Below are positions 4,285-11,491 of a stretch of 14,009 nt of DNA, in pieces (the stretch's first letter is position 1; each line of letters starts with the position of its first letter). The position numbers were made by a program, and so were the translations under genes. Where the stretch lies: the UHGV virus genome UHGV-0193479. One strand, 5' to 3'. The notes under the pieces are model-generated. The model was given only the letters and a program-made list of their open reading frames with translations. It did no database searches and was not told the origin of the DNA. The DNA comes from a virus.

Positions 4285-4605
4285 ATGAAACTGGCGCGTG
4301 AGTTCGGTCGCCCGGACTGGCGTGCCATGCTTGCTGGCATGTCCTCTACGGAGTACGGCGACTGGAAAATCTTCTACCAGGACAATTACTTTCATGATGC
4401 GCAGCTGGACGCACATTTCTCCGGCTTGCTCTACACCATCTCAACCCTGTTTTTTGCCGATCCGGAGTTAACCCCGGACAGTTTCAGCATTCTTTCCTCT
4501 GCACCGGAAGCCATCGACATCGATGATCCGGATGACGATACGCTGATGGCGAAGGCTGCAGGTATTTCAGGAGGCGTGCGCTATGGCCCAGACGGCAGTC
4601 GGTGA
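4285..4605 (+). CDS. T: Tail assembly protein T-like; probably expressed mainly as a G-T fusion by -1 frameshift, approx. join(3854..4258,4258..4605)
   Basis: 106-aa ORF from first ATG, in the -1 frame relative to G and immediately downstream. Position between G and the tape measure gene matches the conserved G/GT arrangement of lambdoid phages. 3' end overlaps H start by 23 nt. Confidence 0.85.
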   Translation: MKLAREFGRPDWRAMLAGMSSTEYGDWKIFYQDNYFHDAQLDAHFSGLLYTISTLFFADPELTPDSFSILSSAPEAIDIDDPDDDTLMAKAAGISGGVRYGPDGSR

Positions 4606-7099
4606 TCTGGTCGTTAACCTTGACGTTAACTCGACAAAATTCAACGAGCAGCTCAGCTACGTCAAAAAAGAATTAAAACAGACCGGCAATACGGCAAACG
4701 ATGAAGCGTTACGTATCCAGCAGTCCTTCAGCCGCCAGGAGAACGCCGCGCGTAAGGCCGGTATTTCAGTGGGTCAGTATAACGCAGCGATGCGTATGCT
4801 CCCGGCGCAGTTTACTGACGTGGCCACGCAGCTGGCGGGTGGGCAGAACCCCTGGCTGATTCTGCTTCAGCAGGGCGGTCAGGTTAAGGACTCCTTTGGC
4901 GGGATCATTCCGACATTCCGGGCGTTGCTGGGGACGATTTCCCCGTTGATGGTCGGCATTGGTGCATTGTCCGTTGCAACGGGCGCGTTGTTCTATGCCT
5001 GGTACCAGGGCTCTTCCACTCTGTCTGATTTCAACAAAACGCTGGTACTGTCGGGGAACACAGCCGGACTGACAGCTGACCGCATGCTGGCACTGGCGCG
5101 GAACGGACAGGCAGCGGGGCTAACGTTCAACCAGACCAGTGAAGCCCTGACCGAGCTTATCAATGCAGGTGTGCGTACTGGCTCGCGCTTTGATGAAATG
5201 AGCCAGGCGGTGGCGCGGTTTACTGATGCCTCCGGCGTGCCGGTGGAGAAAGTCGCTGCAGCCTACGGCAAGCTCGCAACTGACCCGACATCGGGCCTGA
5301 TCGCGATGGCCCAGCAGTTCCATAACGTTACCGCAGAACAGATTGCCCATGTGGCGCAGCTGCAGCGTGCCGGTGATGAGGCTGGCGCACTGCAGGCGGC
5401 TAACGAGGCGGCTACAGCCGGATTCAACGATCAGACCAAAGCCATCCGCGACAATATGGGGACGATAGAGTCTTCAGCGGACTCCCTGAAGCGCGCCTTC
5501 AAGTCGATGTGGGATGCAGCCCTCGATATTGGCCGACCTGACACCGCGCAGGAGATGGTGGCAAAAGCCGAAGCCGCGTTCAAAAAAGCTGATGAAATCT
5601 GGAACCTGCGTAAAGGTGACCGATATGTCAATGCTGAGGCTCGCGCCCGATTCTGGAATGACCGCGAAACGGCCAGGCTTGCGCTGGATATGGCGCAGCA
5701 GCAGGCGGGAATTGCCAGGGCGAACGAAGAGAATGCATCGCGCGAAGCGGCTGCGGAATCGGATCGCCAGAAGTATGCTGCGCAGGCACAGGCAAACTAT
5801 GCCAAAACGCAGACGGCACTGGAGAAATACACGGCCAGGCAGAGCGAGCTCAACAAGGCGCTGAAAGAGGGGCGGATCCTCCAGGCTGACTACAACATCA
5901 ACCTGGCTGCCGCGAAAAAAGAGTACGAAGACACCCTTAAAAAGCCGAAGAAGACCCCGGCAATCAGAACCCCCGCAGGTGCCCGTGCCACCGATACGGC
6001 CAGTGCCCAGACGCTGGAGCTACAGACACAGCTGCGCACCCTGCAGGAGCATAAGAGCATCAATGACACCATCAGCCAGCAGCGTCAGGAGCTGTGGCGT
6101 CAGCAGTCCCGCTTTACGGTTCTGGAAGAGGCCGCGAAGACCCGAACGCTTTCTGCTGAGGAAAAATCCCTGCTGGCCAGTAAAAGTGAGGTGCTTTCCC
6201 GTGCGGAGCTGAATGCGAAGCTTGGCGATCAGATAGTGGCGCAGGAGCGGCTTAACCGCCTGCAGGATACGTCCCAAAAATACGTCACGCAGATCGGCGA
6301 GAAAACCCGAGCCCTTGCGGAAAGTGCTGGTATGAGCAGTCGTGCAGCACAACGCCGCAATGAGGAGGCCCAGCTTCTTCAGGGCTGGAAAAATGGTGGC
6401 GGTTCGGAGAACGACGCTGGTTATCAGAATGAGCTGCAGGCGCTGCAGGCGTATTACGCCGAGCAGGATAAGCTGCGGGACGACTGGCAATCCGGGGCCA
6501 AATCCGCATGGGCAGATTATGTTGATTCCGCTTCAGATGCTTATGGCCAGATGAAGTCGGTTGCCACCAGTACGTTTGATGGCATCGGGCAGAATATGGC
6601 AGACATGCTGACACGCGGAAAGGCTGACTGGGCTGACTTTACCCGCTCCACGCTCTCCATGCTGACACAAATTCTGCTGAAGCAGGCAATGACCGGACTG
6701 GTAGATTCAGCCTCCACGGCGCTGGGGTTTGCCAGCGGGGGATTCACCGGTTCGGGTGGGAAATATGAACCCGCAGGTGTCGTTCACCGTGGCGAATTTG
6801 TTTTCACCAAAGAGGCTACCAGTCGGATCGGCGTCGGCAATCTTTACCGGATGATGAAAGGCTATGCCACGGGAGGGTATGTCGGGGGCGGTGGTACAGG
6901 CCCGGCTGCAGCACCTTTCGGTGTCAGTGTATATGCCCCGGTGACGGTCGAGAATGCTTCCGGTAACGCACAGCAGCAAAACGACGGAGACAGGCTGGGT
7001 AAGGCGTATGAGCAGGTGATTAATAAATCTGTCAACGAGGGTATCGCCAGGGCAATCCAGCCCGGTGGGCTTATCTGGAATGCGACCAATCGCAGGTAA
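4583..7099 (+). CDS. H: Tail tape measure protein, lambda gpH-like
   Basis: 838 aa; VGDLVV…AGISVGQYNAAMRMLPAQFTDVATQLAGGQNPWLILLQQGGQVKDSFGG… and C-terminal GGFTGSGGKYEPAGVVHRGEFVFTKEATSRIGVGNLYRMMKGYATGGYVG match lambda H over essentially the full length (lambda H recalled as 853 aa). RBS AGGAGG at 4569..4574. Confidence 0.97.
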   Translation: MAQTAVGDLVVNLDVNSTKFNEQLSYVKKELKQTGNTANDEALRIQQSFSRQENAARKAGISVGQYNAAMRMLPAQFTDVATQLAGGQNPWLILLQQGGQVKDSFGGIIPTFRALLGTISPLMVGIGALSVATGALFYAWYQGSSTLSDFNKTLVLSGNTAGLTADRMLALARNGQAAGLTFNQTSEALTELINAGVRTGSRFDEMSQAVARFTDASGVPVEKVAAAYGKLATDPTSGLIAMAQQFHNVTAEQIAHVAQLQRAGDEAGALQAANEAATAGFNDQTKAIRDNMGTIESSADSLKRAFKSMWDAALDIGRPDTAQEMVAKAEAAFKKADEIWNLRKGDRYVNAEARARFWNDRETARLALDMAQQQAGIARANEENASREAAAESDRQKYAAQAQANYAKTQTALEKYTARQSELNKALKEGRILQADYNINLAAAKKEYEDTLKKPKKTPAIRTPAGARATDTASAQTLELQTQLRTLQEHKSINDTISQQRQELWRQQSRFTVLEEAAKTRTLSAEEKSLLASKSEVLSRAELNAKLGDQIVAQERLNRLQDTSQKYVTQIGEKTRALAESAGMSSRAAQRRNEEAQLLQGWKNGGGSENDAGYQNELQALQAYYAEQDKLRDDWQSGAKSAWADYVDSASDAYGQMKSVATSTFDGIGQNMADMLTRGKADWADFTRSTLSMLTQILLKQAMTGLVDSASTALGFASGGFTGSGGKYEPAGVVHRGEFVFTKEATSRIGVGNLYRMMKGYATGGYVGGGGTGPAAAPFGVSVYAPVTVENASGNAQQQNDGDRLGKAYEQVINKSVNEGIARAIQPGGLIWNATNRR

Positions 7100-8205: not shown

Positions 8206-8916
8206 ATGCGTCAGAAAACCATCGATGCGATTATGGCGCATGCTGCAGCTGAATATCCTCATGAGTGTTGCGGCGTGGTGGCGCAGAAAAGCCGCGTTGA
8301 ACGTTATTTCCCGTGCCGGAATCTTGCCGAGGCGCCGGAGGACAATTTTGTCCTTTGCCCCGAAGACTACGCAGCTGCTGAGGACTGGGGAACGGTGATC
8401 GCCATCGTTCACAGTCACCCTGACGCCACAACGCAACCGAGCGAACTGGATAAAGCGCAATGCGACGCAACGCTTTTACCCTGGCATATTGTGAGCTGGC
8501 CGGAGGGGGATTTACGCACCATCCAGCCGCGCGGAGAACTGCCGCTGCTGGAGCGTCCGTTTGTGCTTGGACACTTCGACTGCTGGGGGCTGGTAATGAG
8601 CTATTTTCGGCAAACGCATGGTATCGAACTCCACGATTACCGGGTTGATTATCCCTGGTGGGAAAACGAATATCCGGACAACTTCTATCAGGATTGCTGG
8701 TATGAGTGCGGTTTCCGGGAATTCGACGGGCCACCGAAACCCGGCGATATGGTGATCATGCAGGTCCAGGCTGATAAGTGGAACCACGCGGGAATTCTGC
8801 TGGAGGGAAATATGCTGCTGCACCACCTGTACGGACATCTGAGCCAGCGCGTGCCGTATGGTGGCTACTGGCAGGAAAGGACGATGAAGATCGTCAGATA
8901 TAAAACGCTTCTATAG
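8206..8916 (+). CDS. K: Tail assembly protein K-like; N-terminal JAB/MPN (JAMM) metalloprotease motif plus C-terminal NlpC/P60-type Cys-His peptidase domain
   Basis: 236 aa; JAMM signature E…HSHPDATTQPSELD (E-x(n)-H-x-H-x7-S-x2-D) and downstream DCWGLV…H typical of NlpC/P60. Position between L and I as in lambda. RBS AGGAG at 8197..8201. Confidence 0.93.
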   Translation: MRQKTIDAIMAHAAAEYPHECCGVVAQKSRVERYFPCRNLAEAPEDNFVLCPEDYAAAEDWGTVIAIVHSHPDATTQPSELDKAQCDATLLPWHIVSWPEGDLRTIQPRGELPLLERPFVLGHFDCWGLVMSYFRQTHGIELHDYRVDYPWWENEYPDNFYQDCWYECGFREFDGPPKPGDMVIMQVQADKWNHAGILLEGNMLLHHLYGHLSQRVPYGGYWQERTMKIVRYKTLL

Positions 8917-8937
8917 CCCACTCAGGTGGGTTTTTTT
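8917..8937 (+). terminator. Rho-independent terminator after K
   Basis: Seen in sequence: CCCAC-TCAG-GTGGG followed by TTTTTTT (8931..8937), starting directly after the K stop codon (TAG 8914..8916). Confidence 0.7.
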
Positions 8938-9081
8938 AAACCCCGCATTTCACCGCGCACCGCACGCGCAATTCAAACCAAGAACCTTTCAGGATGCACC
9001 TTGAGGAACCGGCTGGCTGTCGGAGCCTTCTTGGGGCCGTTTTCCTGTGCGACAAGGTTCATCACTAAAAGGTAATCCGAT

Positions 9082-9591
9082 ATGCAATATCCAACCGTAT
9101 CTGTAAACGGCGTATCAGTTCGTGTCGATAACGAAGGACGTTATAATCTTAATGATCTCCACGCCGCAGCGGTGGCTGAAGGCAAAGCCACTGAATCACA
9201 GCGACCAGGTGAGTTTCTCAAAACCAAGCAAGTAAGGCGATTTGTTCAAGCCTTGAGCGATGCGAAGAAAATCGCATCGGTTATGACAATTAAGGGGGGA
9301 CCATTTCAGGGCTCCTGGGGGCTTGAACTTATCGCTATACGCTATGCAGCCTGGCTCAATCCGCTTTTTGAAATCAAAGTCTATGAGACATTTCAAATGC
9401 TAATGCGTCGCGGGTTCGATGCCATGTCTCGCTTGAATAAAATCGACCATGTGATTAACACCGAAACCAAAGCGATCAGCCAGTGCGCCAGCCAGATGGC
9501 CAAGTGGGGTGTTGGTGGCCGCAAGCGGCTTCTACACACAGCACGGGAGCGTGTAGCTGATGAAGTACAGATGTATCTCCCCGGTATTTAA
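9082..9591 (+). CDS. KilA-N domain protein (cargo/moron gene, function unknown)
   Basis: 169 aa. N-terminal region …VSVRVDNEGRYNLNDLHAAA…RPGEFLKTKQVRRFVQAL…GSWGLELIAIRYAAWLNPLFEIKV… fits the KilA-N pattern (I/V-R-x-D-x-x-G-x-x-NLNDLHKA…WL…K). Inserted between K and I, where lambda has no gene. Confidence 0.7.
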   Translation: MQYPTVSVNGVSVRVDNEGRYNLNDLHAAAVAEGKATESQRPGEFLKTKQVRRFVQALSDAKKIASVMTIKGGPFQGSWGLELIAIRYAAWLNPLFEIKVYETFQMLMRRGFDAMSRLNKIDHVINTETKAISQCASQMAKWGVGGRKRLLHTARERVADEVQMYLPGI

Positions 9592-9679
9592 AGGGCGCGT
9601 GAACCAAGATAACATTCGGTTTTGCTACCGCTCGATCCCTGCTACTCTTTTGGCAAAATTGACCAAAGGGGATAGGGAT

Positions 9680-10093
9680 ATGAAAAGAATTTTAGTTTTT
9701 ACCTCCATCTTAATGGTTGCCGGTTGTGCAACTAAGCCGGTGACAAATGAACAAGCACAGGATGTTCCTGCAAAACAGGTTATCAGCAATACACTGCTAG
9801 TAAAAAAAGAAGGGACTGGCAAGGTAATAATCAAACGAGACTCTGGTTTTATGGGCAGCGCCTGCATGACCCGAGTTTATGTTGATGGCAAGGAGGTCGC
9901 AGACTTAGATACAGCTCAAAAGGTAACGGTCTATCCCAAAATTGGAGATCATATCTTTAGCGCTTGGCCCAAAGGTATGTGTGGCGGAGGCATGAGCGAA
10001 CAGTCGGGTAAGGTGACAGATACTGGGGTTTTGATGTTTAGAGTTGGTTACGGAACCAACGGTGATTTTGGTATCTACCCTACAGCATTTTGA
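9680..10093 (+). CDS. Predicted lipoprotein (cargo/moron gene); signal peptide with lipobox VAG|C, Ala at +2
   Basis: 137 aa from ATG 9680: MKRILVFTSILMVAGCATKP… has n-region MKR, hydrophobic h-region and lipobox V-A-G-C. GGGGA RBS-like purine run upstream. The ORF-track start 9560 overlaps the KilA-N gene 3' end in another frame and precedes the signal peptide, so 9680 is preferred. Confidence 0.72.
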   Translation: MKRILVFTSILMVAGCATKPVTNEQAQDVPAKQVISNTLLVKKEGTGKVIIKRDSGFMGSACMTRVYVDGKEVADLDTAQKVTVYPKIGDHIFSAWPKGMCGGGMSEQSGKVTDTGVLMFRVGYGTNGDFGIYPTAF

Positions 10094-10112
10094 ATGCAGC
10101 AATTATATATAA

Positions 10113-10135
10113 CCTCGCTCAGGCGGGGTTTTTTA
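10113..10135 (+). terminator. Rho-independent terminator after lipoprotein gene
   Basis: Seen in sequence: CCTCGC-TCAG-GCGGGG (6-bp stem with one G-U wobble) followed by TTTTTTATT; 20 nt after the lipoprotein stop and 17 nt before the I start. Confidence 0.7.
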
Positions 10136-10151: not shown

Positions 10152-10742
10152 ATGTCTGAAGCAATGACTCGAATTGAGCTCGGCGGCGAACCCGGTAAAA
10201 TATTTGGTAAAACTCATTGGCGACTTATCAGTAAAGTTTCTGAAGCAGGTGTAGCACTCGCAAAAACAATCACCGGGTTTGAAAGTTATATGGTAAACAG
10301 CAAGCGCCGCGGACTAACCTTTGCCATTTTTAAAGGAAAGAAAAACATAGGAGTTGATGACCTAGGTTTTCCGGTAACTGGTGAAGTGGTCAGGATTGTA
10401 CCGGTTATCATCGGAAGCAAAAAGGCTGGTTTACTTCAGACAATATTGGGTGCTGTTATTGTTGCAGTAGGTGCCATTGCTACATTTGGTTTTGCCCAGG
10501 CTTGGGGTGTAAATGTAATGATGGCTGGTGGAGCTATGATGGCGGGTGGCGTCGTCCAGATGTTATCTCCTCAGCCAACCGGATTAGCCAGCAAACAAAG
10601 TGCAGATAACCGTGCATCGTATGCGTTTGGCGGGGTAACCAACACTGCAGCGCAAGGCTACCCAGTGCCTCTGCTTTATGGTAAGCGTCGAATCGGCGGA
10701 GCGATTATTTCTGCCGGAATTTATGTCGAAGATCAACAGTAA
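10152..10742 (+). CDS. I: Tail assembly protein I-like (lambda gpI family)
   Basis: 196 aa; glycine/alanine-rich hydrophobic segment GAVIVAVGAIATFGFAQAWG…MMAGGAMMAGGVVQMLSPQP and C-terminal …PVPLLYGKRRIGG… parallel lambda I (…GAAAIAGSFFTAG…LGGVAQMLAPK…VLPVLYGEMRVGS…). Position between K and J. Clearly more divergent from lambda and more AT-rich than the flanking tail genes. Confidence 0.88.
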   Translation: MSEAMTRIELGGEPGKIFGKTHWRLISKVSEAGVALAKTITGFESYMVNSKRRGLTFAIFKGKKNIGVDDLGFPVTGEVVRIVPVIIGSKKAGLLQTILGAVIVAVGAIATFGFAQAWGVNVMMAGGAMMAGGVVQMLSPQPTGLASKQSADNRASYAFGGVTNTAAQGYPVPLLYGKRRIGGAIISAGIYVEDQQ

Positions 10743-10779
10743 ATTAATTAACTTATTAGCTGATAGGCAGGAGAAAACT

Positions 10780-11097
10780 ATGACTTTAGAAGAGCGCATG
10801 AGCATGCTTGAGGCAACCATCGCGAGCCTGCAGGTGGAGATAGCAGAGCTGCATAACCCGGCAATCGTCAATTCCGCCATTCAGAACGCACTACGGCCAG
10901 GTGGCGCTATTCATTCGACCATCACCGGTAATGGCTGGAGTTTGCGAGTAAAGGAGGGAAAGATTTCGCAGGGTGATGCAGGGGTTTTCGGTGGAACGGT
11001 AACAGCGGCCCAGAATGAGGCCGCTAAAACTCATGAAGAAATATTCAATGAAAAGCTCGATTTAATTATTTCTTTGATGCCACCTCTAAAACTTTAA
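10780..11097 (+). CDS. Hypothetical small protein (105 aa), predicted N-terminal coiled coil; cargo ORF between I and J
   Basis: ATG 10780 preceded by AGGAG (10769..10773). MTLEERMSMLEATIASLQVEIAELH… has heptad-like pattern. No similarity to a lambda protein recognised. The ORF-track start 10678 would overlap the I gene 3' end and is less likely. Confidence 0.5.
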   Translation: MTLEERMSMLEATIASLQVEIAELHNPAIVNSAIQNALRPGGAIHSTITGNGWSLRVKEGKISQGDAGVFGGTVTAAQNEAAKTHEEIFNEKLDLIISLMPPLKL

Positions 11098-11326
11098 GGA
11101 TGCGCGTGAACGCATCAATTGTGTGCGGATCATTACGTGCAGCTGATTCTGGGATTTTTGCTTGCCCTGCCTGATAGTTTTTAGTCAGAGCATCGAGTGC
11201 GCCTGGCCGGGCAATGTCCAGTAATTTCACAATGTCCGATAGAATCAGGCCAGTTGCAATTTCATGCGTAAGCAGCTTTTGTTTAAGCTCTGCCACTTCT
11301 TTTTCCAGTTCTAACATCGAACCCAT
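11066..11326 (-). CDS. Hypothetical small protein (86 aa), predicted N-terminal coiled coil; antisense to the late operon
   Basis: Minus-strand ORF MGSMLELEKEVAELKQKLLTHEIA… with a strong RBS on the minus strand (AAGGAG, 6-nt spacer, ATG at complement of 11324..11326). 3' end overlaps the convergent + ORF by 32 nt. Only convincing minus-strand gene in the window. Confidence 0.55.
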   Translation of the reverse strand: MGSMLELEKEVAELKQKLLTHEIATGLILSDIVKLLDIARPGALDALTKNYQAGQAKIPESAARNDPHTIDAFTRILKVLEVASKK

Positions 11327-11457
11327 TTACTTCTCCTTTTTCCAGAGGTAATCAGCCATTCCACCTGTTATGAGTTCACCAGCGTCCCACCGCTGGCGGG
11401 CTGAATCCACAACATAACCAGGTGTTTAGATTTTTAACATCCTGATATTCAGACAGT

Positions 11458-11480
11458 AGCCACCTTTGGGTGGCTTTTTT
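11458..11480 (+). terminator. Rho-independent terminator immediately upstream of J
   Basis: Seen in sequence: AGCCACC-TTTG-GGTGGCT followed by TTTTTT (7-bp perfect stem); ends 11 nt before the J start codon. Orientation-specific: on the minus strand the A-run precedes the hairpin. Confidence 0.6.
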
Positions 11481-11491
11481 ATGGGCGCAAT

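Follow-up and report, generated by a model that had tools for sequence, protein, structure and literature searches.

Several temperate phages carry a small gene that is read against their late operon. In Pseudomonas phage JBD26, the 83-aa protein Tab is encoded on the minus strand, is expressed constitutively in the lysogen from its own promoter and blocks tail assembly by binding the tape measure protein, which leads to tailless particles; anti-Tab (gp30) is encoded on the plus strand within the late operon, and the authors of that study remarked on the addiction-like logic of the pair (PMC10884400). The taiEcA gene of phi80 is read in opposition to a Q-dependent late operon that contains atiEcA, and Q lowers the level of Tai; Tai/Ati has been described as a 'noncontiguous operon' (PMC11364771), as has Tha of S. 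aureus prophages (PMC11087260). STnc6030 of the Salmonella prophage BTP1 is a prophage-expressed antisense RNA to late structural genes that excludes BTP1 (PMC7067206), and P2-like phages and P4 satellites have hotspot loci in which conserved flanks surround variable accessory and defence cargo (PMC9122126). Convergent, overlapping pairs of small genes are annotated between I and J of HK97 (gp22 'moron' on the + strand, gp23 'reverse moron' on the - strand; GenBank AF069529), in the same slot of HK022 (gp22 and gp23 'srb'; GenBank AF069308) and in ES18 (gp24/gp25 'possible moron'; GenBank AY736146), and in mEp506 the I-J slot contains a forward gene of 49 aa and a reverse gene labelled 'DUF2594'. 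We found no functional study of the HK97, HK022, mEp506 or ES18 pairs in the literature, the original HK97/HK022 and ES18 genome papers lying outside the scope of that search. Here we analyze virus genome UHGV-0193479, a stretch of 14,009 nucleotides (the window) that represents a lambda/HK97-like late operon on the + strand throughout (capsid, tape measure, M, L, K, I and J), and focus on two small genes between I and J, a forward moron (gene A) and a reverse moron (gene B), together with the DNA that accompanies them.

The A/B pair belongs to a type that is already known, the HK97-type forward/reverse moron, which is functionally uncharacterised. An earlier note on this DNA had overlooked that such pairs were annotated in HK97, HK022 and ES18; it likewise overlooked that the leader in front of B is the best conserved part, and that this leader and the start of A delimit, as conserved ends, a cassette with an exchanged interior. 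The most conserved feature of the cassette is this non-coding leader rather than either protein. The 165 nt between the B start and the next late gene align across HK97, HK022, mEp506, ES18 and the window though their proteins differ, and the leader is present upstream of every reverse gene examined. An 18-nt pattern from the leader region occurs in more than 120 IMG/VR contigs among the matches listed. In most of the 127 loci for which an open reading frame (ORF) was found, an ORF opposite to the late operon starts 56-61 nt past the pattern, and these reverse ORFs fall into about 20 unrelated families.

Statistics on leader structure were derived from an alignment of 69 non-redundant leaders, using RNAalifold and explicit pair counts. 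Two hairpins are predicted. H2 is an 8-bp stem (11398-11391 with 11384-11377) with the loop GGUGGGA, while in H1 (11366-11361 with 11348-11343) an arm of the AGAGG type, resembling a Shine-Dalgarno (SD) sequence, pairs with an anti-SD-like CCUCU arm; changes on both sides were observed in 5 of the 6 H1 pairs. In addition, an invariant UCAGCC (11404-11399) is complementary to an invariant GGCUGA in the H1 loop (11357-11352). Paired cells amounted to 88.3%, compared to 27-47% with slid partners, and five of five measures exceeded those of 500/500 shuffles. Pairing also distinguished the 2 strands: pair 105-122 is U-G, U-A or C-G in 67 of the 69 leaders on the minus strand and standard in only 28 on the plus strand, and the respective counts for pair 140-161 are 59 and 32. 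Since the base pairs hold on the B strand only, we assign the RNA to the 5' end of the reverse-gene transcript, as its leader.

With a covariance model trained on 63 leaders, a single copy was identified on the minus strand of the window (11321-11419; 91 bits, E 2.3e-22), and ES18 (91.7 bits), HK633, mEp213, and Enterobacter and Citrobacter genomes were recovered. The same model found no leader in phi80 or JBD26. Rfam, searched both at gathering thresholds and in E-value mode, returned no family for the leader, and RefSeq carries no annotation over the region. Judged by these alignments, the leader is a well-supported, predicted structured RNA motif that has no Rfam family. A weak full-length match to the Rfam family rseX, an Hfq-binding small RNA, was seen on the + strand (11393-11481; 29 bits against a gathering threshold of 50, E 0.13), as was one to MicA; both end at the terminator in front of J and are probably driven by it. 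We rejected rseX/MicA as the identity of the region, as these matches are weak, terminator-driven and on the + strand, which the G-U asymmetry rejects.

In the predicted 83-nt leader of the window (-27.4 kcal/mol, z -2.5), the UCAGCC:GGCUGA pairing encloses H2, and CCUCU pairs with the ribosome site of B. Because CCUCU can alternatively pair with the SD-like arm in H1, the modelled folds make it plausible that the leader acts as a translational switch. Upstream, columns T74, A75 and T79 of a TAnnnT hexamer are invariant in the 69 leaders (window 11416-11411). This -10-like hexamer suggests a promoter for B, and transcription, placed from it, likely starts at about 11403-11406. The conserved DNA 5' of the hexamer is, by its alignment, probably a promoter or operator, and its CAGG/CCTG inverted repeat displayed little covariation (one pair with a both-sided change). 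The proposal of the earlier note that B has its own promoter in 11327..11457 was upheld in part: an upstream control region, an invariant TAnnnT and a leader are present, but a consensus scan calls no promoter there. At locus L066 (9954-10122), B is identical to that of the window, and of the leader only the part starting at CCTGGTTATGTT, the -10-like hexamer, is retained; the DNA 5' of this part is unrelated, which hints that the minimal functional unit may begin at the -10. Motifs noticed by eye in this region were also considered and rejected, namely a LexA box in TACTGT...CAGG (wrong spacing, and missing from some variants), the sequence GCGGTGG in the H2 loop, which resembles the ops element of RfaH (a partial match), and a mini-ORF, MADYL, in the H1 loop (its SD lies too near the ATG, and the pattern of covariation speaks for a stem and not for coding).

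Two conserved ends frame the cassette: on the left, the ribosome site of A with roughly its first dozen codons, and on the right, the leader with a + strand terminator. Phages have exchanged the interior between these ends, which comprises the C-terminal helix of A and the reverse gene. A AGCCGAAAGGCAGGAGAnnnTT-ATGACTTTAGAA block around the A start is conserved at the nucleotide level in 32 distinct cassettes; conservation of the A-start DNA (AGCCGAAAGGCAGGAGAnnnTT ATG ACT TTA GAA ... GTTGAAGCGCTGGA) extends over ~55-60 nt, with divergence beyond. In most cases the right end is a + strand intrinsic terminator, as at 11458-11481 of the window, with compensatory changes, and a terminator is annotated at the matching place in HK97 and ES18. 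Many cassettes possess a further + strand terminator just ahead of A. A DNA search found the same cassette, identical, in three E. coli chromosomes, while in HK75, HK446, HK106, mEp235 and others the match was confined to the two flanks, where I ends and J begins, which lie ~124 bp apart in the records of these phages; some E. coli genomes likewise match the flanks without the cassette. Since these relatives match the flanks alone, HK75, HK446 and mEp235 are without the cassette, which is thus an insertion between late genes. Such an insertion between conserved late genes, absent from close relatives, is one mark of an HK97-type moron cassette, and the moron position that the earlier note had assigned to the pair is thereby borne out. 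Morons were originally defined by independent transcription, with a promoter and a terminator of their own; of these, the window offers the + strand terminator and the -10-like TAnnnT, while the scan called no promoter and a terminator for B was not found.

In a rough census, leader cassettes occupied at least five sites in late operons of Enterobacteriaceae phages: before J (the window), between the tape measure gene (H) and M (L006), between M and L (ES18 and many IMG/VR loci), between the tape measure gene and a distal tail gene (L010, L011), and between the lysis and terminase genes (HK633, mEp213, mEp043). Roughly one quarter of the copies adjoin lysis genes near the genome end. A scan of 185,579 genomes with the leader pattern yielded mostly chance matches in GC-rich genomes; among 80 contigs listed, only Enterobacter and Citrobacter clearly passed the covariance model, with one weak Zophobihabitans. 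The cargo behind the leader is diverse, with Pfam domains in only two families (DUF1883 and a retropepsin-like aspartyl protease) and many ORFans, and PADLOC returned no match for the ~20 cargo families. A convergent forward ORF accompanies the leader at 106 of 126 loci; at 78 of these 106 it is a member of the A family, which is paired with at least 13 cargo families. Taken together, these findings suggest that 10759-11481 may be one mobile accessory cassette between I and J, with its reverse gene placed within the late operon in the manner of a 'noncontiguous operon', a view to which we give a little under even credence.

Two leader cassettes were observed in one genome at L021 (2240-2408 and 4292-4460) and in Salmonella phage SPN3UB (H121), in each case with differing cargo; in L021 the cargo is a retropepsin-like protease and a DUF2594-like protein. 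At L047 (1165-1333), H1 is truncated and OrfA of an IS3-family transposase directly follows the leader, indicating that an insertion sequence disrupted this cassette.

The earlier note described A and B as two small ORFs (105 aa on the + strand, 86 aa on the - strand) with good ribosome-binding sites and a 3'-convergent overlap of 32 nt, and the ORF listing and sequence agree with this layout. As the ORF listing contains numerous antisense ORFs of 60-198 aa in the window, ORF length is no proof of either gene, and the case rests on conservation. A conservation check indicated that both ORFs are genuine: B occurs in 13 clusters and the A family comprises at least 138, and A and B are conserved protein-coding genes. 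B is the sole conserved minus-strand gene of the window, the remaining minus-strand ORFs lying within + strand genes, in agreement with the claim that it is the only opposite-strand gene of the operon. Both N-termini are predicted to be helical by AlphaFold (AF2), in keeping with the guess that each begins as a coiled coil.

Homologues of B span 100-43% identity and come from Escherichia, Citrobacter and metagenomes. Their alignment contains 16 invariant columns, among them N65-D66-P67-H68 (the NDPH motif), and the ratio of nonsynonymous to synonymous substitution rates (dN/dS) was 0.17-0.24 for two pairs that are neither identical nor saturated. The AF2 model of B (predicted local distance difference test score, pLDDT, of 88) consists of three helices (2-39, 43-56 and 67-84), and revealed neither a membrane segment nor a nuclease fold. 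A profile search of 1.84 billion representative proteins found just 12 relatives, so that the family is narrow; in PHROGs, B falls into phrog_23209, a family without an assigned function. Profile-profile comparison (hhalign) tied B to HK633 gp67, the mEp213 reverse gene and ES18 gp25-like proteins (97.7%). Homology of B to HK97 gp23 or HK022 gp23 was rejected by sequence comparison. We also rejected B as a DUF2594 (YecF-like) protein, as PF10769 gave no match and hhalign against DUF2594-like cargo gave 1%; the DUF2594-like cargo proteins themselves lie below the PF10769 cut-off, and the label is carried by the mEp506 reverse gene.

The first ~20 codons of B, MGSMLELEKEVAELK (window 11270-11326), are identical in relatives with 43-44% overall identity (P0012, P0013), and nearly identical in a barely related 81-aa protein of L006. 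Thus, the conserved leader block runs on into the B ORF. A loose pattern, consisting of an N-terminal amphipathic helix, L-x-P or D-x-x-P, and further helices, recurs in many 'unrelated' reverse proteins, including B, HK633 gp67, ES18 gp25, DUF2594-like proteins and HK97 gp23. By this resemblance, some of them may be very distant relatives within one helical superfamily, of which only the link of B to the HK633/ES18-like proteins is confirmed.

Gene A is open from 10678 in the ORF listing, and the ATG at 10780 yields 105 aa. The RefSeq annotation starts at 10723 instead, for a protein of 124 aa whose gene would run over the end of I. Because every homologue begins MTLE behind AGGAG, the start at 10780 is favored, and the RefSeq start is probably wrong. 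A has 4 close clusters of homologues; all members of its wider family are labelled "hypothetical" and derive from Citrobacter, Salmonella, Enterobacter, Leclercia, Escherichia and relatives, and in PHROGs it falls into phrog_22477, likewise a family without an assigned function. A is a mosaic. An N-terminal coiled coil (MTLEERMSMLE...) that exists in few variants precedes a conserved middle (GWxLR...GDAGxFGGxVTAAxNxAA), followed by a C-terminal module whose versions match the neighboring B variant, while the N-terminal variants assort independently of B. The C-terminal motif, AAK[TS]HEE[IL]F.EKLD.I.SL[ML]PPLK[LV], exhibits conservative amino-acid changes, also 5' of the overlap with B. Indels are in frame, and the ratio of nonsynonymous to synonymous polymorphism (pN/pS) was 0.56-0.59 in frame compared to 0.81-0.98 out of frame in two divergent pairs with a frame control. 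AF2 predicts a confident helix at 3-25, a low-confidence middle and a helix at 85-99. The inverted repeat at 11005-11024 sits exactly at the boundary between the middle (VTAAxNEAA) and the cargo-linked C-terminal module, and may represent a recombination joint or a 3' structure of the B transcript. Neither a promoter-like site (promoter scan of the window) nor a terminator was found between I and A, and A directly follows I in the late operon.

Library searches with the two proteins were negative throughout. Neither A nor B matched Pfam or a PADLOC defence model, PHROGs contained them only in families of unassigned function, and no meaningful match emerged from the PDB by sequence. Structural searches of viral and PDB libraries with Foldseek left nothing under E 0.1, as expected for a small helical protein. 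BLASTP of A and B against Tab, anti-Tab, Tai (TaiEcA, 204 aa) and Ati returned no match. Coordinates are summarized in Table 1.

Table 1. Positions of late genes and of the cassette features between I and J in the window.
Feature	Position	Strand	Basis or remark
Tape measure gene	4583-7099	+	
K	8206-8916	+	
I	10152-10742	+	
Left cassette end: small hairpin (degenerate GCC-GNRA-GGC here), then AGGAG	10759..10773	+	sequence
A ribosome-binding site AGGAG	10769-10773	+	6 nt before ATG 10780
Gene A, forward moron, 105 aa	10780..11097	+	
GCGGCC-N8-GGCCGC inverted repeat within A	11005..11024		sequence
A/B 3'-end overlap, 32 nt	11066..11097		
Gene B, reverse moron, 86 aa	11066..11326	-	ATG 11326-11324
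B Shine-Dalgarno AAGGAG	11333..11338	-	6 nt before ATG
B 5' leader RNA, predicted	11327..11406	-	alignments, RNAalifold, pair counts, covariance model
-10-like hexamer TATGTT	11411..11416	-	invariant T, A, final T in 69 leaders
Conserved DNA 5' of leader (CTACTGTCTGAATATCAGG...CCTGG)	11417..11457		alignment
Intrinsic terminator GCCACC-TTTG-GGTGGC then T6	11458..11481	+	10 nt before J start
J	start 11492	+	

A second moron was observed between K and I (window 8915-10130, + strand). It contains a gene for a KilA-N domain protein (9082-9591; Pfam 2.6e-15) and one for a lipoprotein (9680-10093; phrog_890), and is bracketed by + strand terminators at 8915-8932 and 10111-10130.

With respect to function, the arrangement fits best with a prophage-expressed gene and a late-expressed partner, as in Tab/anti-Tab. 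More specifically, and by analogy, we hold it somewhat short of an even chance that the prophage expresses B as an effector, most likely an anti-phage one, with A as its late-expressed self-immunity partner. With an upstream control region to itself, B could be expressed in a lysogen, and because A is without a promoter-like site and directly follows I, it is expected from Q-antiterminated late transcripts only. In a lysogen, B alone would be made, from its own promoter, with the leader setting or gating its translation: pairing of CCUCU with the SD-like arm would leave the ribosome site free, and pairing with the true ribosome site would close it. After induction, Q-modified (antiterminated) late transcription would read through A, whose protein would appear only then, and the late mRNA, fully antisense to the B mRNA, could add control. 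The C-terminal helix of A would neutralise B; the constant association of this helix with the B type is what would be expected of an antidote that recognises a cognate effector. B would serve an anti-phage or exclusion function in the prophage, perhaps directed against virion or tail assembly, and A would be a self-immunity factor, modelled on Tab/anti-Tab and Tai/Ati. A broader proposal, that the leader represents a cis-regulatory RNA of a new class, which forms, with the conserved N-terminal module of A, a portable expression platform for a hyper-variable set of at least 20 families of small prophage-expressed effectors, on in lysogens and off or neutralised in the late phase, seems possible to us but on balance unlikely.

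Several observations count against an effector/self-immunity pair. A sigma-70 promoter for B was not called by the consensus scan, its -35 being poor and the -10 alone convincing by eye, and no terminator of the B transcript was found in the window. The hairpin that sequesters the SD, with the ribosome site >50% paired, is predicted in 41 of the 69 leaders. The match between the A C-terminus and B could stem from mere physical linkage of adjacent, overlapping genes. At 20 of 126 leader loci, for example in HK633, there is no convergent forward ORF, and an antidote is therefore not universal. Constraint on A is weak (pN/pS 0.45-0.94), its AF2 model is poor (pLDDT 58), and searches of PADLOC, Pfam, BLAST and Foldseek revealed no sequence or fold tie of A or B to a characterised defence or counter-defence protein.

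The strongest competing explanation, which we nevertheless consider unlikely, is that B is a lysogenic-conversion, host-modulating or anti-defence factor without an exclusion role, constitutive in the lysogen or made right after DNA entry, and that A is an unrelated late protein. The great diversity of cargo behind the leader, from DUF1883 and a retropepsin-like protease to many ORFans, the failure of any cargo to match a PADLOC defence model, the cassettes that have no forward partner, and the position of about a quarter of the copies beside lysis genes near the genome end are all consistent with it. An unrelated A is difficult to reconcile, however, with a C-terminal module that strictly tracks the B variant while the N-terminus recombines freely, or with a convergent plus/minus geometry that is that of a proven defence/antidote pair.

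We likewise questioned whether the functional product is the antisense RNA, such that late mRNA, either of the resident phage or of a superinfecting relative, is bound by the leftward transcript and decays as a result, as with STnc6030. The earlier note had stated, and the sequence bears out, that any minus-strand transcript would run antisense to the late mRNA; over A, and possibly into I, complementarity between the B transcript and late mRNA is unavoidable. Both the exclusion of BTP1 by an antisense RNA in late genes (PMC7067206) and the lowering of Tai by the phi80 late transcript (PMC11364771) provide precedents, and the best-conserved parts of the cassette are non-coding. Yet B is constrained as a protein, with a dN/dS of ~0.2, an invariant NDPH, a confident three-helix model and a strong ribosome-binding site, and the leader keeps a ribosome site at a fixed distance before ~20 different ORFs. 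We therefore regard RNA as the functional product as improbable, although antisense action may well add to the protein function instead of replacing it.

The earlier note had listed toxin-antitoxin-like, abortive-infection, anti-defence and regulatory modules as candidates, a list too broad to fail, from which a classical toxin-antitoxin pair can now be set apart as unlikely. That B and A form a toxin and antitoxin, in either order, and stabilise the prophage by addiction would agree with two small adjacent genes whose variants co-segregate, and with the addiction-like logic noted for Tab (PMC10884400). Type II pairs, in contrast, are co-transcribed in an operon and have a recognisable domain, whereas A and B converge, which makes co-transcription impossible, and A has no promoter-like site for expression in a lysogen. 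Neither Pfam, NCBI-type names nor PADLOC gave a match to a toxin-antitoxin family, and B has no membrane segment or nuclease fold. We consider this explanation very improbable. Finally, although antisense ORFs of like length are frequent in the window, an origin as chance ORFs or, as the earlier note named as a condition to check, as pieces of a broken tail gene is practically dismissed by conservation of both genes across genera with in-frame indels and conserved motifs, by cassettes that are intact at five operon positions, and by the finding of no similarity of A or B to I, J or any tail family.

Few reverse genes in late operons are so far known to serve as prophage defence with a late antidote; they were recognised recently, and each through genetics. 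The leader and the forward-gene start mark more than 120 cassettes among the matches listed, including the long-known orphan genes of HK97, HK022 and ES18. A shared structured leader and a two-ended cassette with ~20 cargo families were not found in Rfam, RefSeq annotation or the literature as searched above. If a defence/antidote role is correct, the leader would provide a sequence handle for new pairs in Enterobacteriaceae siphophages, and would hint at an RNA-level control step that is absent from the Tab and Tai studies; if that role fails, the leader still stands as a structured RNA motif that calls for explanation.

Comparison with the systems introduced at the outset places the locus among them. 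In contrast to the hotspots of P2-like phages and P4 satellites, where the defence systems are large and recognisable and no RNA leader is common to the loci, the leader cassettes carry cargo of mostly 65-100 aa (a few of 154-210 aa) in reverse orientation within the late operon. STnc6030 differs from the B transcript in being non-coding, ~500-800 nt long and from a P22-like phage, whereas the B transcript carries a conserved ORF. Tai/Ati resembles the cassettes in its site, since the lysis-terminase position is also used by the leader cassettes of HK633, mEp213 and mEp043; however, TaiEcA bears no relation to B, tai and ati are divergent genes that overlap at their 5' ends, and phi80 has no leader. 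The likeness to Tab/anti-Tab is closer, in that a small minus-strand gene within a late operon converges on, and overlaps, a plus-strand partner, by 47 nt in the JBD26 record and by 32 nt in the window, although the two pairs share no sequence similarity, and Tab/anti-Tab lies at a terS-terL site, without a leader and in another host clade. The closest counterparts are the pairs of HK97, HK022, ES18 and mEp506. Their proteins have no detectable relation to A or B, save the profile-level link of ES18 gp25-like proteins to B, and the ES18 pair lies between M and L, unlike the I-J location in the window. Nevertheless, HK97, HK022 and ES18 share with the window the convergent, overlapping small ORFs, a homologous leader and, in front of the late gene that follows, the same + strand terminator.

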